From an uncultured Clostridia bacterium (GTDB lineage: Bacteria > Bacillota > Clostridia > TANB77 > CAG-508): a stretch of DNA of 64,000 nucleotides. The stretch is taken from positions 7,296 to 71,295 of the forward strand of contig CANQHI010000002.1 in the NCBI GenBank assembly GCA_947623725.1, in the 5' to 3' direction. The notes beneath the pieces are model-generated. The model was not told the DNA's origin. It saw only the letters and a list, made by a program, of their open reading frames with translations, and searched no databases. Below, one piece after another: positions 2,432 to 51,035 of the stretch. How positions within the stretch are numbered: position 1 is the stretch's first letter; each line of letters starts with the position of its first letter. The position numbers and the translations under genes are program-made.

Positions 2432-4180
2432 TTGTATAATAACTTATATAAAAAGAAACATATGAAAGAATATTTAGAAAAATATCAAGAATGGCTTAAT
2501 AACCCAGTGTTTGATGAAGATACTAAAAAAGAATTAGAATCAATAAAAGATAATGAAAAAGAAATTGAAGATAGATTTTATAAAGAATTAGAATTTGGTA
2601 CAGCAGGTTTAAGAGGCATAATTGGAGCGGGCTTAAATAGAATGAATAAATATACTGTGGGAAGAGCAACACAAGGTTTAGCAAACTTTATATTAAAGGA
2701 AGGAACTCAAGATAAAGGTGTTGCAATAGCTTTTGATTCAAGACATAAATCACAAGAATTTGCAGAAGAAACAGCATTATGCTTAAATGCAAATGGTATA
2801 AAAACGTATGTATTTGAATCATTGAGACCAGTTCCAGAATTATCATTTACAGTTAGAGAATTAAAATGTACAGCAGGGATTATGATTACAGCAAGCCATA
2901 ATCCTCCAGAATATAATGGATATAAAGTTTATTGGGACGATGGAGCACAAATAGTGCCACCAAAGGATAAACAAATTATTAATGAAGTAAATAATACAGA
3001 ATTTTCACATATAAAAACAATGGAAAAAAGTGTGGCCGTTGAAAAAGGTTTGTATATACAAATAGGAAAAGAAATTGATGATAAATTTAATGATACATTA
3101 AAATCATTAGTTTTAAATCCTGAGATAATAAAAGAATATGGAGATAAAATAAAAATAGTATATACACCATTGCACGGTGCTGGAAACGTACCAGTGCAAA
3201 GAGTTTTAAAAGAACTAGGATTTACAAATGTATATGTAGTTCCAGAACAAGAAATGCCAGATGGAGATTTTCCAACAGTTAGTTACCCAAATCCAGAAGA
3301 CAAAAATGCATTCAAATTAGCATTAGAACTTGCAAAAAAAGTAGATGCAGATGTTGTTTTAGCAACAGATCCAGACTCTGATAGATTAGGAGTATATTCT
3401 AAAAATGAAAATGGAGAATATATTTCGTATACTGGAAATATGTCAGCATTGCTTATTGCAGAATATGAATTTTCTCAGAAAAAAGAAAAAGGAGTGTTAC
3501 CATCAAATGGAGCATTTGTCACAACTATAGTTTCATCAAATATGGCAAAAGCAATAGCAAAAGAATATAATTTAAAAATTTTTGAAACACTTACAGGTTT
3601 TAAATGGATGGGTGAAAAAATAAGAGAGTTTGAAGAAAAAGATACATATAAATTCCAGTTTGGATTTGAAGAAAGTTATGGATGTTTATTGAGTCCACAT
3701 GCTAGAGATAAAGATGGAGTATCTGCAGTTATGGCTGTTTGTGAAGCAGCAGCATATTACAAGAGCAAAGGATATACTTTATGGGAACAGATGCTTAATA
3801 TTTATAAAAAATATGGATTTTATAAAGAAGGACAAATTTCAATTGTTCTAAAAGGTATAGATGGAGCAGAACAAATAAAATCTAAAATGGAAAGAATAAG
3901 GAAAAATCCTCCAACATCATTAGCTGGTTTTGATGTTTTAGAAGTAAGAGATTATCAAGAACATACCGTTATTAAAGCAAATGGAGAAAAAGAAGAAACT
4001 GATTTACCAACATCAAATGTAATCTATTTTGATTTAACTGATAATGCATGGGCATGTGTAAGACCTTCTGGAACAGAACCTAAAATTAAATTTTATATGG
4101 GTGTAAGAGGAACAAGTATGCAAGATGCAGATGAAAAATTAGATAAAATTACTGAAGCTATGAAAAAGATTGTTGAATAA
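2432..4180 (+). CDS. pgcA: Phospho-sugar mutase (alpha-phosphoglucomutase/phosphomannomutase family, PgcA-like)
   Basis: Active-site TASHNPPEYNGYK motif with FGTAGLRG. Length 582 aa. The alternative start at 2462 (MKEYLEKYQEW) aligns with PgcA N-termini. Confidence 0.8.
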   Translation: MYNNLYKKKHMKEYLEKYQEWLNNPVFDEDTKKELESIKDNEKEIEDRFYKELEFGTAGLRGIIGAGLNRMNKYTVGRATQGLANFILKEGTQDKGVAIAFDSRHKSQEFAEETALCLNANGIKTYVFESLRPVPELSFTVRELKCTAGIMITASHNPPEYNGYKVYWDDGAQIVPPKDKQIINEVNNTEFSHIKTMEKSVAVEKGLYIQIGKEIDDKFNDTLKSLVLNPEIIKEYGDKIKIVYTPLHGAGNVPVQRVLKELGFTNVYVVPEQEMPDGDFPTVSYPNPEDKNAFKLALELAKKVDADVVLATDPDSDRLGVYSKNENGEYISYTGNMSALLIAEYEFSQKKEKGVLPSNGAFVTTIVSSNMAKAIAKEYNLKIFETLTGFKWMGEKIREFEEKDTYKFQFGFEESYGCLLSPHARDKDGVSAVMAVCEAAAYYKSKGYTLWEQMLNIYKKYGFYKEGQISIVLKGIDGAEQIKSKMERIRKNPPTSLAGFDVLEVRDYQEHTVIKANGEKEETDLPTSNVIYFDLTDNAWACVRPSGTEPKIKFYMGVRGTSMQDADEKLDKITEAMKKIVE

Positions 4181-4251: not shown

Positions 4252-4330
4252 GTCCTCGTAGCTCAGTTGGATAGAGCGCGGACCTCCTAAGTCCGGTCTT
4301 GCGGTGGTTCGACTCCACTCGGGGACACCA
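4252..4330 (+). tRNA. tRNA-Arg (anticodon CCU)
   Basis: Acceptor stem GTCCTCG / CGGGGAC with 3' ACCA. D-arm GCTC..GAGC. Anticodon stem CGGAC/GTCCG with loop CTCCTAA. T-loop TTCGACT. Confidence 0.8.
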
Positions 4331-8147: not shown

Positions 8148-8239
8148 GGAGATGTACCGAAGCGGTCATAACGGAACTGTCTCGAAAACAGCTAGCTGCG
8201 TTTTGTGGCACGTGGGTTCGAATCCCACCATCTCCGCCA
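8148..8239 (+). tRNA. tRNA-Ser (anticodon CGA), long variable arm
   Basis: Acceptor GGAGATG / CATCTCC with GCCA. Anticodon loop CTCGAAA. Long extra arm. T-loop TTCGAAT. Confidence 0.8.
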
Positions 8240-9058: not shown

Positions 9059-9152
9059 ATTCTAGGGTAATCCAATAAGAGCCTATGAATCTTGTCAGGT
9101 CCGGAAGGAAGCAGCAATAAGTAGATACTTTTGTGTGGGTTACTCTAGAATA
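9059..9152 (+). ncRNA. ffs: Signal recognition particle RNA (small 4.5S-type, ffs/scr)
   Basis: Exact domain-IV consensus GTCAGGTCCGGAAGGAAGCAGC. Closing helix TTCTAGGGTAATCC / GGGTTACTCTAGAA. Canonical location between tadA and dnaX. TATAAT at 9028-9033. Confidence 0.75.
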
Positions 9153-9224
9153 AGAAAATATATCATGCCATTATTAAATATAAATCATTAAAAATTCTAT
9201 CAATAAAAAAGAAAGGAAAATTTA

Positions 9225-42690: not shown

Positions 42691-44748
42691 ATGAGAGAAA
42701 AGAAAGATACTAAATTAAGATTTAATATTCTTATTGCAATAGTTTATATTATGGGTATTATTTTGCTTGTTACATTATTCAATTTGCAAATTGTTCATGG
42801 TGAAGAATATAGAGAAACATCAAACACAAGATTGACAAGAGAAAAAACAATTACCGCAACTAGAGGAAATATTTTAGATTCAACAGGTAACAAATTAGTA
42901 TCCACAAGTATGTTATACAATGTGGAAATCTATAAGACAAAAATTGATAATGATACATTAAATAATACACTTTTATTATTAGCAAAAACTCTCGAAGAAA
43001 ATGGTGATAGCTATATTGATGATTTTCCAATAAAAATAAATCCTTTTGAATTTAAAAATATAGATGCAGATGCTTGGAAAAGTGCAAATAAAATAGATAG
43101 TAATGCTGATGCAGAGGCTTCATTTAATTTCTTTAGAGAAAGATATAAAGTAAAAGCCGATAATGATGAAGATGCTAGAAGAATAATTACTTTGAGATAT
43201 TTAATAGAAAGAGATGGCTATAGTAATACTAAGTCAGTAATATTAGCAAAAAATATTAGTAATATAAGTTATGCTAAATTTAATGAGATGAGTTCTGAAT
43301 TTCCTGGAATTAGTACTTATACAGAACCAACAGTTTTATATCCATTAGGAGAATTGGCATCACATATATTAGGATATGTAGGTCCAATTTCACAACCAGA
43401 ATTAGAAGCAAATCCAGATTATAATCAAAATGATATTATTGGAAAAACAGGAATAGAGAAAGTATTTGAAAAATATTTAAAAGGAAAAGATGGAATAAAA
43501 CAGATAGATATGTCTGTTGAAGGTTTAGTTACAGATGAATATATTTCAGAAGAAGCAGTAACCGGAAGTGATATAGTTTTAACAATACAAGCAGATTTAC
43601 AAAGAGTAACAGAAGAAGCCTTAGCAAAAGACATACAAGACATGCAAAATGGAGTACTTAGTGATGCAAGAAATGCTAATGAAGGTGCAGCCGTAGTTGT
43701 AAATGTAAAAACAGGAGAAATATTAGCAATGGCAAGTTATCCTAATTATGATCCTTCATTATTTACAGATGGAATAAGCCAAGCAAATTGGGATAATTAC
43801 TTAAATGATGGAAGGCACCCTTTAGTTAATAAAGCAATTTCTGATAAATCTGCACCTGGTTCAACCTTTAAATTAGTAACAGCAATAGCAGGATTAGAAA
43901 GTGGAGCGATTGACTTAAATACAAAAATAAATGACACTTATAGATATACGTATTTTAAAGATTATCAACCTACATGTTGGCAAAGAGGTGGACATGGATG
44001 GCAAAATGTTGTGCAAGCTATAGAACACTCTTGTAACTATTTCTTTTATGAAACAGGAAGAAGAGCAGGAATTGAAAAACTATCAGAAGTTGCGAAAGCT
44101 TTTGGATTAGGACAAAAAACAGGAGTTGAATTACCAGATGAAATAGCAGGAACACTTTCATCACCAGAAGTAGATAATGAATGGACTGGTGGAAAAACTA
44201 TACAAACCGCTATTGGACAATTATATAATGATTTTACACCTTTACAAATGGCAAAATATACAGCAATGCTTGCAAATGGTGGAAAAAATATAGATGTAAC
44301 AATAATAAAATCTATTAATAAAACAGATGGCACACAAGTTTCAAGAAATGAAATAGATACTTATGTAAGTGAGTTACTTCAGAAAAACGAAAATAGTGGA
44401 AGTGATTTGGAATTAAGTCCAGAGATTATGGCAGCAATTAGAGAAGGTATGAAAGGGGTTACTAGTGATGATGCCGGAACAGCATATTCATATTTTAGAG
44501 ACTTTAATATTCAAGTTGGTGGTAAAACAGGATCTGCATCTACAAATAATGGAACTAATGCGTGGTTCGTAGGATTTGCACCATTTGATGATCCTGAAAT
44601 AGCAGTTGCCGTATATGTAAAAGATGGTGCACATGGAGGATCAACAGCACCAGTAGCAAGAGCAATCTTTGCTCAATATTTAGGAATGAATGCATCTCAA
44701 ATAACTGAGGACACAACAGTTTCGTCCTATATGCAAACTATAAGATAA
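42691..44748 (+). CDS. mrdA: Penicillin-binding protein 2 (elongasome transpeptidase)
   Basis: N-terminal TM. Transpeptidase motifs STFK, SCN and KTG. mreBCD-pbp2 synteny. Confidence 0.85.
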   Translation: MREKKDTKLRFNILIAIVYIMGIILLVTLFNLQIVHGEEYRETSNTRLTREKTITATRGNILDSTGNKLVSTSMLYNVEIYKTKIDNDTLNNTLLLLAKTLEENGDSYIDDFPIKINPFEFKNIDADAWKSANKIDSNADAEASFNFFRERYKVKADNDEDARRIITLRYLIERDGYSNTKSVILAKNISNISYAKFNEMSSEFPGISTYTEPTVLYPLGELASHILGYVGPISQPELEANPDYNQNDIIGKTGIEKVFEKYLKGKDGIKQIDMSVEGLVTDEYISEEAVTGSDIVLTIQADLQRVTEEALAKDIQDMQNGVLSDARNANEGAAVVVNVKTGEILAMASYPNYDPSLFTDGISQANWDNYLNDGRHPLVNKAISDKSAPGSTFKLVTAIAGLESGAIDLNTKINDTYRYTYFKDYQPTCWQRGGHGWQNVVQAIEHSCNYFFYETGRRAGIEKLSEVAKAFGLGQKTGVELPDEIAGTLSSPEVDNEWTGGKTIQTAIGQLYNDFTPLQMAKYTAMLANGGKNIDVTIIKSINKTDGTQVSRNEIDTYVSELLQKNENSGSDLELSPEIMAAIREGMKGVTSDDAGTAYSYFRDFNIQVGGKTGSASTNNGTNAWFVGFAPFDDPEIAVAVYVKDGAHGGSTAPVARAIFAQYLGMNASQITEDTTVSSYMQTIR

Positions 44749-44813
44749 ATATAAATTGTTATTATTAGTGTAACAGGAATAAATAGTTAGTTATTCTCAA
44801 TTCGATAAAAAAT

Positions 44814-44842
44814 TTGACAAATATAAAAAATAACTGTATAAT
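44814..44842 (+). promoter_or_regulatory. Consensus sigma-A promoter TTGACA-N17-TATAAT driving a short plus-strand RNA
   Basis: TTGACA 44814-44819, 17-nt spacer, TATAAT 44837-44842. Confidence 0.55.
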
Positions 44843-44849
44843 TAAACAT

Positions 44850-44937
44850 AGAAAATGAGAGCCACAGAAATGTGTGCTACCATAAAAATTAGGTAAAACA
44901 CCACAAAGCTTGGCAGAGCATATGTGGTGCTTTTATT
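44850..44937 (+). ncRNA. Candidate ~90-nt sRNA (putative type-I antitoxin-like RNA) ending in the shared terminator
   Basis: Consensus promoter immediately upstream. Terminator hairpin CACCACA / TGTGGTG plus CTTTTATT. Only a 13-codon ORF. Its 5' end is homologous to the 5' UTR of the opposite-strand peptide gene. Confidence 0.4.
44899..44937. terminator. Bidirectional terminator shared by the convergent sRNA and small-peptide transcripts
   Basis: 7-bp stem CACCACA / TGTGGTG with a 17-nt loop containing AAGCTT. T-runs on both strands. Confidence 0.55.
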
Positions 44938-45049
44938 ATTTGCTCAAAATTACTACTATTGCAATAATCAAGGCAAATGCTATAATAGTCATTCCTACTA
45001 AACCGTAGAAAAGTAAGTATATTATTAATAACATAGCTTGTTCTACCAT
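44936..45049 (-). CDS. 37-aa hydrophobic single-TM peptide (type I toxin-like): MVEQAMLLIIYLLFYGLVGMTIIAFALIIAIVVILSK
   Basis: GGAGGTGG RBS 6 nt upstream of ATG (45049). Hairpin CACAG-tttttac-CTGTG immediately 5' of the RBS. 17-codon uORF in the leader. Not in the ORF track (<60 aa). Confidence 0.45.
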   Translation of the reverse strand: MVEQAMLLIIYLLFYGLVGMTIIAFALIIAIVVILSK

Positions 45050-45260
45050 ATAGCACCACCTCCATTCTCACAGTAAAAACTGTGTATGTAAAGTGGTAGC
45101 ACTCACACTGCTTATTCTCATTTCCTATGTTTACCAATATACAACATTATTAGATAAAATACAAGCAAACAGAACAAATTTTTGAAACAAATTTATATTT
45201 TACTTTTTATGGTTTGACATATTATATTTACTATGAAACATTTATAACATAATTAAACAA

Positions 45261-45300
45261 AATCGCTTAATGTCATATAAAACATAAAGCGATTTTTTAG
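45261..45300. terminator. Hairpin terminator (AATCGCTT / AAGCGATT)
   Basis: 8-bp stem with T/A runs on both sides. Likely terminates minus-strand gene 45443-46006. Confidence 0.4.
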
Positions 45301-45442
45301 TTATTTAATAAAAGTAAAAATAAAATAATGTATAAAAATTTTTCATGCACATTTTCAATATATAAGAAAAAAAGTAGTGCAATAATAAGTAAGTCATCAG
45401 AGTATAATTTAAAACCAAAAATATCTATTTTTCCATCATTAT

Positions 45443-46006
45443 CTAATATTTTTGATCACCACCAAAAGAGTTAAATAACTGAGTCATTTTACCCATTTTT
45501 ATTAGTTTCATATATTCATCAAGTTTCTCTTTCTTTGTGTCCCTAAGATAAGGCTTTAAAGACATAAGAAGTTTACTCATGTCATCATCATTACTACTTT
45601 TCATCTGAGACATTATTTTTTGAATTTTCATCATAGTTTCGATATCTATATCAGGCATTTTAGTTTCTGAATTATCTGAATTAAAATTAGTAGAATCGTT
45701 GAAATTGTTTGAAGTATTAGAAGAGTTTGAATTAATCGGTTTATTATAATTGTTTCTATTACTTGTTGCATTATAGTTAGAATAACCTTTACTATTGGCT
45801 GTATTATAGTTAGAATAGCCTTTATTATTAGTCATATTATAATTAGAATTGTTATTTTTTATATTTGTATTTTTTTGAGAACTAAAATTGTTAGAGTTAG
45901 AATTTTGAAAATTATTAATAAGTGTTTTTATATCGTCAGGAATTTGATTATTTTGAATCATAGATTGAGCTTTTTTTATCATTTCATTCATATCATTATC
46001 ATTCAT
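45443..46006 (-). CDS. Asn/Ser-rich low-complexity protein with internal NKGYSNYN repeats
   Basis: RBS AAAGGAA. N/S-rich middle (NKGYSNYNTANSKGYSNYNATSN). Conserved-looking charged C-terminal helix. Confidence 0.5.
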   Translation of the reverse strand: MNDNDMNEMIKKAQSMIQNNQIPDDIKTLINNFQNSNSNNFSSQKNTNIKNNNSNYNMTNNKGYSNYNTANSKGYSNYNATSNRNNYNKPINSNSSNTSNNFNDSTNFNSDNSETKMPDIDIETMMKIQKIMSQMKSSNDDDMSKLLMSLKPYLRDTKKEKLDEYMKLIKMGKMTQLFNSFGGDQKY

Positions 46007-46358
46007 AATATGTATATTCCTTTCTTTATGAATATTAAAAAAGAGTAATACAAATTTATATATAATTATTATATGAAAAAAAACTAAAATTGTTACTAAT
46101 TTTTAATAAAATATTACTTTGATATTTCTTACGCAAGCACGTTTTTGAATTGAAAATAAAGCAAAAAATCTCAAAAATTGCTAACAAAATGTAATATAAA
46201 TTTAATATTATAATCTTGAAATGTCTTTCCGTAAAGGCTTATAGATAATTTTAAAAAAGTATGTATTGAAATAATTTTATTTGTATTTTAGTATTACTGT
46301 AATTAAATAGCTTTTATTATAAATAAATATATAAGCAATTCGTCAGTGGGAGGAAAAT

Positions 46359-49300
46359 ATGAAAAGAAGCCAAAAGATTTTTAATAAACTTACATCATCA
46401 ATTATTTCAATAGTTTTAATTGGTTCAAATTTTGCACCGGTATTATCTTATGCTGCTAACCAAATAAATCAAAATGAATCAAGTGATGAAATAATGTTTG
46501 ACGTTTCAGTCAATGATGAACATTCTTATACAGCTACTTTAGAAGAAAAATTAATGCTTAAATTTGATCTAGCAGTACAAGATGGTGGGTATATTAAAGA
46601 TGGAACAATTTCTATAAGTGATGAAAATTACAAAATTGGTGAAATCGAAAGCAATGTATATGAAGAAGATAATAATAATATAAATCAGACTAATTCGGAA
46701 ACAATAGAAATTGGACAAGTAAATAGTGATAATCCTCTTAATTTTGAATTGCCAATTGAATTTGAAAAACAAGATTTAATGAACTTAGAATATTTTAATA
46801 AAAATAGTAAAGTAGAATTAGTGGCTAATTACATTAATAATGATGGAGAAGAAGAAAAAATCTCTAAAGAAGTTAACCTAAATATAAAATGGGATGAAGA
46901 AGCAGAAGGATATATTAAACAAGAATTAAAAAGATATTTAAAATATGACAACAAAACATTAGTTAGTTTCTTAGTAACAGATGGAATGCAAGATAATAAA
47001 TTGCCACAGTTAAGTAAGATTACTCAAGTACTAGTTCCAAAAATAGGAGAATATGAACCAAGCAAAATAATTGTTACAGGTGAATATTCAGATTATATTT
47101 ATGAAAATCAAGTACTTGCAATAAAGAGTGCTGAAGAATTTACATGGAATTCTGGTAATGAATATTTAGTTACATATATATATGATAATCAAATGGATGA
47201 AACAACATTATCAACAATTGCATTAAGTCAAATAAAAACTGTAAATGATAAAACAATAGAAACAAAAACAGATGTAATGTCATATGAAGTAAAAGATGAG
47301 ATAGGAAATTTATTAGAAACTAATATTATAGGAACAGACGAATTAAGTAAAGGATATTTATATACAAACTTAAATAGAGAAAATAAATTGGATACATCAT
47401 TTGAGCAAACCTATCAAATTAATATAGGATTAGTTGATTTTCTAGATGAAATTAAAGTATCTGAAAATGAAAATAATACAGTAACTAGAAAAATAACAAT
47501 TGATAAAGAAGAATTAATAAAAATTTTAGGTGAAGATGGAAGTATAAAAGTTTTAGACAAAGATGGTATTGAACTTGGAATTTTAAATAAAGATAATTTA
47601 GAATTAAATGTTGATAAAAATAGTTTACAGTATATTACTAGTAAGCCTGTTAAAGAAGGAAATATAAATGTTAATTTAACTAAAGTAATAGATCCAAATA
47701 TGGAATATACAAAAGAATCACTTGCAGAATTAAATGAAATAGAAAACAGCATAGATATAATAGGTAATTATCAAGGAAATGAAATTTCAAATAATCATTT
47801 AGAAAAGAAATTTAACTTAGTTGAACCATCTTCAAATGCAACAATAAGTATTAATCAAAGTGATTTATCTACAGTTATAAAAAATGAAGATATAGTTATA
47901 ACTGCTACACTAGAAAGAAATGATATTTCAGATGCATTATATACAGATCCAGAATTATTAATCACTTTACCAGATCAAATAACTAGTATAGATTTAAAAG
48001 ATGCAAAACTTTTATATGAAGATGAATTAAAACCAGCAGATTTTAAAGCAGAAGGAAATAAAATATATTTAAGATTAGAAGGAACTCAAACGGAATATAG
48101 TTCAATTCCTACAGCAAATGGTTCAGTTATAAAGATAGTTGCAGATTTAGGGTTGGATAATCTAGCAGTAAATGCTAATGAGAAAATTACGTTAGAATAT
48201 ACGAATCAAGCAAGAAATGAAATAAAAGCAGTAGAAACACCTATTCAAATAGTTGCTCCTACAGGTTTTGTTACTGCAAATTCTGCTATGCAAGCAAAAA
48301 CTTCAACAGCAATAAATAGCGATGAAGTATTTCAAATTGCCGCAAATGATGTTGAAAAGCAGATTACTTTAAAAGGAACAGTTGTTAGTAACTTAGAAAA
48401 TAATGGAACAGGAGTATTAATACTTGGAAGAATACCAGCTCAAGAAACAAAGTCAGTCGATGGATTAAATAATGATTTAGGATCAACATATATAACAAAT
48501 ATAAAATCACCAATTTCAATAGAAGGAATTGATGCAGATATTTATTATTCAGAAAATGGCATGGCAAGTTATGATTTATCAAATGTAGACAATGGCTGGA
48601 CACAAGAATGTATCTCAAGTGCAAAATCTTATCTAATAGTAGTAAAGTCAGAAGTTGCTCCTGCACAAAGGATAGATTTTACTTATGATATAAATGTGCC
48701 AAGCAATATTGATTATGAAAATAGTGCTGTTTCAATGTTTGCAGTATATTATGACAATAATGAGAATTATAAAAATATAATTGTATCTAAAAAGATAAGT
48801 ATTGATACAGAAAATATTCCTATCATAAAAACTACAATTACAGCTAATGATTTTTATTCAGGAGATGTAATTAATTATGGAGATAATATAAGTTTAGGAA
48901 GCTATGTAAGATATATAATTAATGTAGCTAATGAAGGAAAGCAAGCAGCTGAAAATGTAAGAGTAAAAATAGCAATTCCAGAAGAATGTGGAGTATTTTA
49001 TGAAACTTATGATGAGGAGTTAGATTATTATGATTCATATATAGATACCAGTGCAGAAACAATAAGAGAAATAGAAAAAATTGAACCAGGCGAAACAAAG
49101 CAAGTAGAAATAATATTGTATATACCTACAACAATAAATGTAGGAAGTACAATAGTAATAAGACCAGAAGTTACAGCAGATAATATGGCAGATATGAGTA
49201 CAGCAATATATGAAAACACTTTATCAGAAGGAAAAATAAGCCTAAAAATGTCCACTACTTTATTAAAGCAAGATAAAGAAATAGGAGATGAAATATCATA

Positions 49301-51035
49301 TGGATTAGAAATAGGAAACAATAGTAAAGAAATAGTAAAGAATCTAGAAGTAGATATAAATATTCCTAAATATATAGAAATAAAAGATAGTGGAGAAGGG
49401 GAATATGATCAAAACGAAAGAATATTAAGATTTAGAATAGATGAAGTAAATATAGTAAAATATTTGAATTTTAAAGCAGAAGTAGTAGGCTCAGATGAAC
49501 CAAATCAGGAGATATCGATAACGGCAGTAGGTAGGTATAATAATGAGGAAATCAAATCAAACACAGTAACAAAATATGTAAAGGATACAAAAGGTATTAA
49601 TGTAAATATAAGCAGTAATATAGAAGGTAGAATGATAGATACAGATACAGTAGAATATTACATAGAAGTAGAAAATGCATCAAAAAAAGAAGCAGAAATC
49701 AGCATTTATGATAATTTACCTACAGAATTAAAAATAGAGAAATACATGGTGAGAAATGGAAACAAAGTAACGGAAGAAAATGTATCAATATCACCAAATA
49801 TAATAGAAAAAGTTGAAGCAGGAAAAAGTATAAAAGTAACAATAGTAGCTAAGCCATATAAATTAGACTCAGTAGGAGAAATAAAAGAAATTGAAAATAA
49901 GGTAACAGTAAAAGTAAATGAACTTGAAATAGGAACAAATAGTATAAAGCAAGAAATTGAAGGAACATCAAATTTTAATACAGAGATTGCAGAAGAAGGA
50001 GAGATAAAAGAAGCAAGAAAAACATATAGTATAAGTGGAAAAGTATGGTATGACAAAAATAAAAATGGAAAACAAGATGATGAAGAAGGAATAGAAGGAA
50101 CAGAGATAAAACTATATGATGTAAATAAGTCAGAATATATAAAGGACGATGAAGGAAAAGAAAAAGTAATAAAAACAAAAGTTGATGGAGAGTACAATTT
50201 TGAAAACATACCAAAAGGACAATATATAGTAATAGCACAATATGATAATGATAAATATGTGATAGTAAATTATCAAGAAAAAGGCTTGAATGAGAATGAG
50301 AATAATGATTTTGTGCAAGCAGAAAAAGGAATAGCTATAAAGGAAGAAGACAAGGAAAGGACAGCAACTACAAATAAAATAACATTAGAAGAAAATAATG
50401 TGTATAACATAGATTTAGGACTAGAAGATAAAGATAACTTTTATATAACAGCAAATAATAAGATTACAAAGATAACTACATTAAATGGAGAAGAAAGCAA
50501 AATATATGAAGGAAAAGATATAGAAAAATCAAGGATAGATTTAGCAAAAAAAGAAAAGACAATAGCAATAATTGAATATACAATAGAAGTTAAAAACGAA
50601 GGAAATGTAGATGGTTATGTAAAAGAGATAAGAAATGAAATACCAAACGGAATGAAATTTATATCAGAATTAAATAAAGATTGGTATGAAAATTCAAAAG
50701 GAGAAGTAATAAATAGAAGCTTAAGTAATAAGCTCATAAAGCAAGGTGAAAAAGAAGAAATAAAATTAATAGTAACAAAAGAATTAAATGAAAATGATAA
50801 AGAATTAATTCATAGTACAGCAGAAATAAGAGAAACATATAATAAATATGGAATAAAAGAAATAAATGCTAAGGCAGGTCAAGTAGTAAAAGCAGATGGA
50901 ATAGCAGATGTATTAATAGTAAGAAGAGATGTATTAAAAGAAACACTCATAATAATTAGTTTATCAATAGGAATTATTGGGGCACTAAGTTTATTAGGAG
51001 TAGGAATATATAAGAGAGTAAAAGAGTATGTATAA
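46359..51035 (+). CDS. Giant surface protein (1,558 aa): signal peptide, DUF11-like and SdrD/Cna-B-like repeats, C-terminal TM anchor (no LPXTG)
   Basis: Signal peptide MKRSQKIFNKLTSSIISIVLIGSNFAPVLSYAANQ. B-type fold motif GKVWYDKNKNGKQDDEEGIEGTEIKLYD...DGEYNFENIPKGQYIV. C-terminal LIIISLSIGIIGALSLLGVGIYKRVKEYV. Confidence 0.75.
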   Translation: MKRSQKIFNKLTSSIISIVLIGSNFAPVLSYAANQINQNESSDEIMFDVSVNDEHSYTATLEEKLMLKFDLAVQDGGYIKDGTISISDENYKIGEIESNVYEEDNNNINQTNSETIEIGQVNSDNPLNFELPIEFEKQDLMNLEYFNKNSKVELVANYINNDGEEEKISKEVNLNIKWDEEAEGYIKQELKRYLKYDNKTLVSFLVTDGMQDNKLPQLSKITQVLVPKIGEYEPSKIIVTGEYSDYIYENQVLAIKSAEEFTWNSGNEYLVTYIYDNQMDETTLSTIALSQIKTVNDKTIETKTDVMSYEVKDEIGNLLETNIIGTDELSKGYLYTNLNRENKLDTSFEQTYQINIGLVDFLDEIKVSENENNTVTRKITIDKEELIKILGEDGSIKVLDKDGIELGILNKDNLELNVDKNSLQYITSKPVKEGNINVNLTKVIDPNMEYTKESLAELNEIENSIDIIGNYQGNEISNNHLEKKFNLVEPSSNATISINQSDLSTVIKNEDIVITATLERNDISDALYTDPELLITLPDQITSIDLKDAKLLYEDELKPADFKAEGNKIYLRLEGTQTEYSSIPTANGSVIKIVADLGLDNLAVNANEKITLEYTNQARNEIKAVETPIQIVAPTGFVTANSAMQAKTSTAINSDEVFQIAANDVEKQITLKGTVVSNLENNGTGVLILGRIPAQETKSVDGLNNDLGSTYITNIKSPISIEGIDADIYYSENGMASYDLSNVDNGWTQECISSAKSYLIVVKSEVAPAQRIDFTYDINVPSNIDYENSAVSMFAVYYDNNENYKNIIVSKKISIDTENIPIIKTTITANDFYSGDVINYGDNISLGSYVRYIINVANEGKQAAENVRVKIAIPEECGVFYETYDEELDYYDSYIDTSAETIREIEKIEPGETKQVEIILYIPTTINVGSTIVIRPEVTADNMADMSTAIYENTLSEGKISLKMSTTLLKQDKEIGDEISYGLEIGNNSKEIVKNLEVDINIPKYIEIKDSGEGEYDQNERILRFRIDEVNIVKYLNFKAEVVGSDEPNQEISITAVGRYNNEEIKSNTVTKYVKDTKGINVNISSNIEGRMIDTDTVEYYIEVENASKKEAEISIYDNLPTELKIEKYMVRNGNKVTEENVSISPNIIEKVEAGKSIKVTIVAKPYKLDSVGEIKEIENKVTVKVNELEIGTNSIKQEIEGTSNFNTEIAEEGEIKEARKTYSISGKVWYDKNKNGKQDDEEGIEGTEIKLYDVNKSEYIKDDEGKEKVIKTKVDGEYNFENIPKGQYIVIAQYDNDKYVIVNYQEKGLNENENNDFVQAEKGIAIKEEDKERTATTNKITLEENNVYNIDLGLEDKDNFYITANNKITKITTLNGEESKIYEGKDIEKSRIDLAKKEKTIAIIEYTIEVKNEGNVDGYVKEIRNEIPNGMKFISELNKDWYENSKGEVINRSLSNKLIKQGEKEEIKLIVTKELNENDKELIHSTAEIRETYNKYGIKEINAKAGQVVKADGIADVLIVRRDVLKETLIIISLSIGIIGALSLLGVGIYKRVKEYV

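Follow-up and report, generated by a model that had tools for sequence, protein, structure and literature searches.

A par-like cassette of gut Clostridia with a 37-aa hydrophobic peptide gene and a convergent small RNA: a likely type I toxin-antitoxin-like module

Toxin-antitoxin (TA) systems of type I pair an mRNA of 150-400 nucleotides (nt), which codes for a usually hydrophobic protein of 20-60 amino acids (aa), with a complementary antisense RNA (PMC8594479). The closest described relatives of the element reported here are the par-like loci, which are defined by six features and include Fst/RNA II of E. faecalis pAD1 and its chromosomal relatives (PMC7472228). The element is a cassette of ~389 bp on contig CANQHI010000002.1 (assembly GCA_947623725.1) of an uncultured Clostridia bacterium, inside a stretch of 64,000 nt that we call the window (coordinates given without a locus name refer to it). 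We consider it likely, judging from sequence comparison and from analogy with described systems, that this cassette is a chromosomal type I TA-like module with a previously undescribed toxin family and the layout of par. The initial annotation of the window had already proposed a type-I-TA-like convergent module with a par-like 3'-3' overlap, and comparative evidence supports that proposal as the best inference: an overlap of ~49 nt is predicted, and the whole arrangement is conserved in the 80 loci that we fetched, which makes it more than chance.

Both parts of the generic type I definition have a counterpart in the cassette, as the predicted mRNA of ~238 nt carries a 37-aa open reading frame (ORF) with a grand average of hydropathy (GRAVY) of 2.2, and the predicted antisense RNA has a conserved promoter, a 5' hairpin, a terminator and ~49 nt of perfect complementarity. 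The likeness to par extends to the convergent promoters, to the shared bidirectional intrinsic terminator with its complementary 3' stem-loops, to a leader stem-loop that sequesters the Shine-Dalgarno sequence (SD), which is predicted in the cassette, and to the small single-helix hydrophobic peptide in a low-GC Firmicutes host (PMC7472228). In neither does the antisense RNA cover the coding region (PMC7472228, PMC8594479), and the RNA sizes are comparable, ~230 nt plus a short small RNA in par (PMC7472228) against a predicted ~238 and ~94 nt in the cassette. The differences lie in the peptide and in the 5' ends. Fst has a PXXXG motif and a charged C-terminal tail, whereas the cassette peptide has neither and contains no proline. 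In par, the direct repeats DRa and DRb give the two RNAs complementary 5' ends, with pairing over the site where toxin translation begins; the prominent repeats of the cassette are inverted, so its two RNA 5' ends are alike and not complementary. The helix that hides the extreme 5' end of the toxin mRNA in par is not predicted here, since the consensus fold of 59 variants leaves the opening 27 nt unpaired, and the small RNA matches no Rfam antitoxin family. The module thus appears par-like in layout and yet outside the Fst family.

Other Gram-positive systems share part of this architecture. BsrG/SR4 and TxpA/RatA of B. subtilis are likewise convergent and 3'-overlapping, the 38-aa hydrophobic toxin BsrG is close in size to the 37-aa peptide, and their mode of action, duplex-triggered decay of the toxin mRNA, is plausible for the cassette too (PMC4342826, PMC8594479). 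Their overlap, however, extends into the ORF over some 100 nt or more (PMC8594479), while that predicted for the cassette is ~49 nt and essentially the terminator. Kinship with BsrG, to which a resemblance in F-G-G-L and in an SxQK tail had pointed, found no support, as profile comparison with the BsrG sequence from PMC4342826 gave an hhalign probability of 0.6% and E = 0.1. SprA1/SprA1AS of S. aureus overlap at the 3' end without covering the ORF, as the cassette RNAs are predicted to do, and are reported to make their functional contact outside the overlap, at the translation-initiation region (PMC8594479). The SprA1 toxin PepA1 belongs to the Fst group (PMC7472228). The cassette peptide does not, and the pairing that we predict outside its overlap is weak.

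As a repeated unit, the cassette recalls LDR (ldr/rdl) and SIB/QUAD (ibs/sib) of E. coli, which are intergenic cassettes, a few hundred bases long and originally spotted because they are repeated, that each combine a tiny hydrophobic toxin gene with an antisense RNA and occur, like the cassette, in dispersed and tandem copies. These systems (LDR is cited in PMC7472228) differ in gene layout, their antisense RNA lying at the 5' end or spanning the whole ORF, in their Gram-negative hosts and in their unrelated peptides. The features of the cassette are as follows.

44806-45194, no strand assigned: whole conserved cassette (repeat unit), ~389 bp, from outside one promoter to outside the other
44814-44842, plus strand: antisense-RNA promoter TTGACA-N17-TATAAT, 12/12 match to the consensus
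44843-44860, plus strand: shared 5' motif, small-RNA copy, TAAACATAGAAAATGAGA
44848-44941, plus strand: predicted antisense small RNA, putative antitoxin, ~94 nt, delimited by promoter and terminator
44860-44878, plus strand: 5' stem-loop SL1 of the small RNA, AGCCACA-GAAA-UGUG(U)GCU, from per-sequence folds
44874-44883, plus strand: shared motif 2 of the small RNA, GTGCTACCAT, unpaired just 3' of SL1
44893-44941, no strand assigned: predicted 3'-3' RNA overlap, ~49 nt, comprising the terminator, the stop codons and the last ~2 codons
44895-44933, no strand assigned: bidirectional intrinsic terminator, core stem 44899-44905/44923-44929 (CACCACA/TGTGGTG), inner stem GCU(U)/(G)AGC
44893-45130, minus strand: predicted toxin mRNA, ~238 nt, its ends set by promoter and terminator
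45049-44936, minus strand: gene of the 37-aa hydrophobic peptide, putative toxin, MVEQAMLLIIYLLFYGLVGMTIIAFALIIAIVVILSK, with a second in-frame TAA after the stop
45050-45065, minus strand: strand with SD and spacer up to the AUG, AUGGAGGUGGUGCUAU, predicted to pair with the leader
45069-45084, minus strand: apical hairpin CACAGU-UUUU-ACUGUG at the tip of the SD helix
45086-45102, minus strand: leader strand opposite the SD, GUGCUACCACUUUACAU, which holds motif 2 GTGCTACCAC (45102-45093), from the minimum free energy fold
45121-45068, minus strand: upstream ORF (uORF) of 17 codons, for which a conserved coding role is improbable
45116-45133, minus strand: toxin copy of the shared 5' motif, TAAACATAGGAAATGAGA, on or beside the predicted start of transcription and unpaired in the consensus fold
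45136-45164, minus strand: predicted toxin promoter, -35 TTGTAT (45164-45159), N17, -10 TATATT (45141-45136)

A scan of 185,579 species-representative genomes (one per species) returned 176 related stretches, and 80 loci were fetched and analysed. All 80 belong to metagenome-assembled genomes of uncultured Clostridia or Clostridium sp., including Clostridium sp. CAG:245, and the sample labels of some name human, mouse, rabbit or goat gut. The search among other Clostridia that the initial annotation had called for was thus fruitful, and the hydrophobic peptide ORF that it had read from the window, at 45049 to 44936 of the minus strand behind a strong SD (GGAGG, 45063-45059, 9 nt 5' of the ATG), is intact in 78 of 81 loci. 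The peptides are 36, 37, 39 or 40 aa long, so that all length changes are in frame, and they are 62-100% identical across loci. Among 43 distinct 37-codon genes, the ratio of nonsynonymous to synonymous change (pN/pS) is 0.40 (pS 0.25, pN 0.10); on this measure, the small ORF is under coding constraint, that is, purifying selection. The family consensus, MIExxLLxIIYLLFYGLVGxTIIAxALIIALxIILSK(xx), is proline-free and ends in SK or SKQK, and the high GRAVY is consistent with a single membrane helix that is almost tail-less.

A protein search with the peptide, padded to the 40-aa minimum query length, recovered 27 clusters (90% identity) of 36-38 aa that are 71-95% identical to it, and a profile search found 166 proteins at E<=0.001 among 1.84 billion representatives (50% identity). 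The databases leave these relatives unnamed or call them just "hypothetical protein". The peptide had no match in Pfam or NCBIfam at E<=10, and Pfam, NCBIfam, PADLOC and PHROGs together gave nothing or chance-level matches (E > 0.2); the peptide profile matched nothing in PDB, and three peptide strings of the family did not occur in a full-text search of a collection of papers. These results agree with the initial impression that the peptide is unlike Fst, TxpA and BsrG. On the RNA side, Rfam returned no relevant match over 44000-46500 at E<=10 (only SNORD42 and a CRISPR repeat, both at the chance level of E > 4), and none of its antitoxin families reached gathering score anywhere in the window.

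The small-RNA gene would be driven by a perfect plus-strand promoter, as the initial annotation had stated, and a consensus scan found no other perfect match in the region. Across loci, its -10 hexamer is TATAAT in 74 of 75, its -35 hexamer is TTGACA in 63, TTGACT in 9 and TTTACA in 2, and the spacer measures 17 nt in 62. The spacer sequence is poorly conserved while the hexamers are nearly invariant, as one would expect if the promoter functions. The predicted toxin promoter also has conserved hexamers, with TATAGT, TATACT and TATATT as -10 variants, and a variable spacer. It scores 8/12 and for this reason was not picked up by the scan; being further from the consensus than the antisense promoter, it is predicted to be the weaker of the two. 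In type I systems, the antitoxin promoter usually outstrips the toxin promoter in strength. Upstream of the toxin -35, ~25 nt (45166-45190, TTTCAAAAATTTGTTCTGTTTGC) are conserved in most loci of subfamily A and possibly form an UP element or an operator; the AAAAATTTG part of this segment resembles the reverse complement of the bases just 5' of the antisense -35.

Between the two promoters lies the shared CACCACA/TGTGGTG terminator of the initial annotation, which stands confirmed by its flanking tracts and by the RNA folds of both the small RNA and the toxin mRNA, where the hairpin is recovered. Flanked by an A-tract and, opposite, by a U-tract, it could terminate on both strands. A simple terminator scan missed it because the loop is long and internally paired and the hairpin contains an internal loop. 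The stem sequence varies by subfamily with pairing kept (CACCACA/UGUGGUG, CGACACA/UGUGUCG, AACACAUCU/AGAUGUGUU and AACCAUUC/GAAUGGUU), and in per-sequence folds 60 of the 64 distinct small-RNA variants form a 3' hairpin with 9 or more nested pairs. The tally of basal pairs is confounded by pairing between the A- and U-tracts and was put to no quantitative use. As both RNAs would end at this one terminator, their last ~49 nt would be perfectly complementary, and with the ends so placed, the overlap cofolds into a continuous duplex of ~47 bp (ddG -46.8 kcal/mol). Given these predicted ends, this complementarity is independent of the pairing predictions on which a contact in trans would rely.

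The limits of the conserved unit come from comparison with three near-identical copies (L078, L071 and L069 among the fetched loci) and from per-column conservation over the 80 loci. The three copies are 96-98% identical to the cassette and sit in unrelated flanks, and their identity stops at 44806 and 45194; in the alignment of modules, the columns between ~45185 and ~44812 closely resemble the window, and beyond these points identity drops to the background level. The unit therefore runs from promoter to promoter, ending just outside each. The initial annotation had placed the module at 44800-45135; the features that it listed are in place, but the toxin promoter lies beyond that span and the conserved unit is the longer one.

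The leader of the toxin mRNA (fold z = -4.66 for the whole mRNA) is predicted to hold the SD in a helix. The SD is predicted to pair with 5' leader bases in 56 of 63 distinct 5' untranslated regions. Partial burial of the SD had been proposed initially; the predicted agent, however, is the basal helix with 45086-45102, and the CACAG-N7-CTGTG hairpin to which burial had been ascribed forms only the tip. Over 54 distinct sequences outside subfamily B, 95.4% of cells in the leader structure and 97.4% of those in the SD helix are paired. The covariation score of the leader was equalled by 0 of 500 shuffles, slid controls fall to 29-52% paired, and compensatory changes occur at three of the six pairs of the apical hairpin. 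The alifold consensus of 59 variants favours a second register, AGUGCUACC with GGUGGUGCU, and two registers of the SD helix are possible because GGUGGUGG is repetitive. Subfamily B lacks the apical hairpin and has instead a perfect alternative anti-SD, GCCUCC against GGAGGU, in a simple hairpin, which suggests that sequestration of the SD by the leader is kept as a function with another sequence. The 17-codon uORF of the initial annotation does exist, but neither its length nor its frame is conserved: it has 13, 15, 17, 24 or more codons across loci, which also differ in how it is framed against the main ORF. A role as a conserved hok/mok-style coupling frame was rejected, since length and frame shift with loop indels and no SD at usable spacing was found; its AUGAGA is part of the motif that also opens the non-coding small RNA.

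The predicted small RNA (fold z = -3.06) opens with the 5' motif; SL1, whose loop is GAAA, comes next, then a (U)ACC motif that is left unpaired, a variable linker rich in A and U, and finally the terminator. Of 64 variants, 63-64 form SL1, and the five pairs nearest its loop each occur as two to five canonical pair types. The 5'-proximal ORF within the small RNA is not conserved across loci. An all-subfamily MAFFT alignment of the small RNA misaligned the terminators, so that the RNAalifold consensus was poor, and per-sequence folds replaced it.

As first noted from the window, the two transcription units begin with nearly the same sequence. Two inverted repeats, one of 18 nt at 94% identity (44843-44860/45116-45133) and one of 12 nt at 92% (44871-44882/45094-45105), are collinear and equally spaced. 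Perfect matches to the 18-mer TAAACATAGRAAATGAGA occur at just two places in the window, both inside the cassette, and the motif ATAGRAAATGARA is almost confined to these two cassette positions in 414 kb of fetched loci. Within 1-2 bases, both predicted RNAs start with AUAGRAAAUGAGA and carry GUGCUACCA ~10-13 nt further on, and the stretch in between differs. The AUAGRAAAUGAGA ends (45116-45130 and 44848-44860) are purine-rich, predicted to be unpaired, cassette-specific and identical rather than complementary.

Motif 2 of the small RNA has the same sense as the leader segment 45102-45093 and could base-pair with the toxin mRNA around its SD and spacer, to which it is complementary. Since this leader segment is the part predicted to pair with the SD and spacer, the small RNA carries a copy of the anti-SD. 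The motif differs by subfamily (GUGCUACC, GGUUUGCC, GUGUUGCC), and its leader and small-RNA copies change in parallel, being identical at 7.6/8 positions within a locus against 5.0/8 across classes. The homologous 5' ends and this parallel change fit the earlier suggestion of an RNA arm that arose from a second copy of the toxin leader.

The cassette recurs in differing places and states of repair. Four assemblies among the 80 loci have two or three copies, several contigs end within the cassette, and the exact peptide of the window is found on nine mostly short contigs with differing contexts. L026 has three tandem diverged cassettes between 2380 and 3700, ~520 bp apart (ORFs at 2493-2603, 3001-3120 and 3521-3646), and L074 has at least two tandem 5' motifs (2417 and 2947). 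Truncated or decayed cassettes occur in L022, L049, L070 and L035; in the first three the start codon or the leader is gone, L049 is missing the antisense promoter as well, and in L035 the portion with the terminator and small RNA is replaced. Multiple, tandem and decayed copies and contig breaks within the unit are habits typical of type I loci. In L078, a 74-nt second copy (2439-2512, 89%) of the segment upstream of the toxin promoter lies ~350 bp 5' of the cassette and may be a remnant of another cassette copy.

There is no fixed neighbour or operon partner, as 151 flank segments fall into 122 similarity clusters. The neighbours are mostly core genes (YchF, phosphoglucomutase (PGM), GlmS, UvrC, PcrA, DnaE, SpoIVA and Spo0A) and occasionally belong to mobile elements, namely, a Mutator/IS256-family transposase (L031, 843-2081) and a MobA/VirD2 relaxase with NikA/MobC (L037, 4355-5966). 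One flank sequence lies 3' of the cassette in L022, L031 and L034 and 5' of it in L037, L041, L043 and L056. No relatives were found in viral contigs, phage records or plasmid records.

In the mechanism that we favour, a moderately strong promoter would yield the ~238-nt mRNA for the single-helix membrane peptide of 37 aa, and its strong SD, held in a helix with its own leader, would leave the primary toxin transcript poorly translated. The near-consensus convergent promoter would supply the ~94-nt RNA in excess, and pairing in the ~49-nt overlap, probably beginning at the complementary terminator loops, would most likely lead to duplex-dependent inactivation or decay of the toxin mRNA. Motif 2 of the small RNA may also pair with the SD/spacer and block translation in trans. 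Of the two contacts, we think the terminator overlap more likely to do the work than an anti-SD pairing in trans that would be decisive.

Several points weigh against the module as we read it. We show how the cassette is built and conserved, that its ORF is constrained and that its structures covary; transcription, the RNA ends, toxicity and the decisive contact are all things that we infer, and the label "toxin" is given by analogy because no known toxin family was matched. The 3' end of the toxin mRNA is uncertain because the U-tract on its side is only UUUU. Within the main subfamily, the SD helix is largely invariant and its changes are one-sided only, so that its support consists of conservation and one-sided changes and not of compensatory pairs. 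As for pairing in trans, the 5' domain of the small RNA is weakly above controls in the window of the initiation region (z about -1.6), and the whole non-overlapping mRNA gives -20.6 against -18.2 +/- 3.2 kcal/mol for shuffled sequences (z about -0.75). The 12-nt complementarity to the start-codon region is absent from subfamily B, and changes in codon 2 (GUA to AUA) are uncompensated.

The last of these points bear also on a variant of the same module in which the overlap only starts the contact and the decisive step is pairing of motif 2 (GUGCUACCAU) at the SD/spacer or the start codon, a possibility that we hold to be less likely. Mechanisms of this type are published for par (PMC7472228), motif 2 is common to the leader and the small RNA, changes in parallel and stands unpaired just 3' of SL1, and in the window the direct repeat 44873-44884/45039-45050 (12 nt) provides 11/12 complementarity to the start-codon region. 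Duplexes of small RNA and initiation region are more stable for cognate than for noncognate partners, at -15.9 against -13.6 and -11.1 kcal/mol in subfamily A and -14.1 against -11.3 in subfamily B; the energies nevertheless barely beat shuffled controls, and all subfamilies share only ~4-8 pairs, among which several are G-U. The likeness of the motifs could also be maintained by gene conversion between the inverted repeats, and start-codon pairing fails in subfamily B as described. RNAduplex site mapping over the whole mRNA was uninformative because the duplexes hold long interior loops. Loop-loop pairing of the small-RNA linker UAAAAAUU or the GAAA loop with the U-rich loop of the leader hairpin, seen in the best duplex of the window, was dropped, as neither partner is constrained in sequence and subfamily B has no such hairpin. 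More tentative still is the idea that the antitoxin RNA was born by inverted duplication of the toxin promoter and leader and still acts as a same-sense mimic of the leader, either replacing the cis anti-SD in trans on mRNAs whose leader has been opened or removed or competing for a factor that recognizes the shared 5' domain; the two copies would then coevolve through their common target.

Two further explanations dispense with the TA system altogether. The absence of a flanking partner, the copy number and decay within genomes and the self-contained build, with two promoters and a terminator of its own, make it unlikely that the peptide is a nontoxic small membrane protein (e.g., a modulator of a membrane complex) tuned by antisense RNA, even though its toxicity is putative, no toxin family was matched and many neighbours are core genes. 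Type I toxins are also usually marked by what is seen here, namely, extreme hydrophobicity, a strong SD that is sequestered and an antisense promoter that is the stronger one (PMC8594479). That the cassette is a repetitive intergenic or miniature mobile element with incidental ORF and promoters would account for a ~390-bp unit at near identity in unrelated sites, for the inverted repeats, for contigs that break inside it and for the few copies that adjoin an IS256-family transposase or a relaxase. We hold this to be highly improbable, as the inverted repeats are internal, ~35-60 nt inside the unit ends and at the two transcription starts, and no target-site duplication was evident by eye at the four boundaries compared. 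Against it also stand the ORF frame, which is kept under purifying selection across peptides that are 62-100% identical, the promoter hexamers, which hold while the spacer drifts, and the searches of viral contigs, phage records and plasmid records, which found no relative.

A type I TA-like module of this kind would extend the par-type layout of convergent promoters, bidirectional terminator and cis-sequestered SD to a putative toxin unrelated to Fst, which suggests that the RNA layout is more general than the toxin family in which it was first discovered. No model in Pfam, NCBIfam, PADLOC or Rfam was found to represent the family, although a single lineage of uncultured gut Clostridia with very AT-rich DNA carries it commonly; naming it would make such loci recognizable and would explain assembly breaks at these repeats. 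The 5' part of the small RNA is visibly a same-sense copy of the leader and changes in step with it, and this provides a testable case for the origin of antisense antitoxins. If the small RNA does act as a leader mimic, the cassette would offer a concrete example of how a type I antitoxin can arise and a regulatory logic based on identity of 5' ends, unlike the direct-repeat complementarity of par.

In the window, which has a G+C content of 25.9% and in which no second copy of the cassette was found, the cassette lies between the stop of a penicillin-binding protein (PBP) gene and an Asn-rich ORF.

42691-44748, plus strand: penicillin-binding protein gene, with Pfam PBP_dimer and Transpeptidase
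45443-46006, minus strand: Asn/Ser-rich ORF of 187 aa with low-complexity repeats

The 187-aa ORF had no significant match in Pfam, NCBIfam or PADLOC. Just 3' of it, an inverted repeat (AAAATCGCTTAATGT/ACATAAAGCGATTTT, 45259-45296) with a minus-strand T-run is probably the terminator of its gene, separating that gene from the cassette. On the other side, no hairpin with a U-tract was found from the PBP-gene stop to the antisense promoter (44749-44813). Read-through from the PBP gene would therefore cross the small-RNA gene and end at the bidirectional terminator of the cassette, so the small-RNA sequence could also exist as the 3' untranslated region of the PBP-gene transcript.

The plus strand of the window has a strong excess of purines, with 27336 A to 20088 T and 10138 G to 6438 C. 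The long ORFs near the cassette are mostly on this strand. Two ORFs of the window are very long, 46359-51035 (1558 aa) and 52981-57210 (1409 aa), and its RNA genes include a signal recognition particle RNA (9060-9153) and two tRNAs (4252-4327 and 8148-8236).

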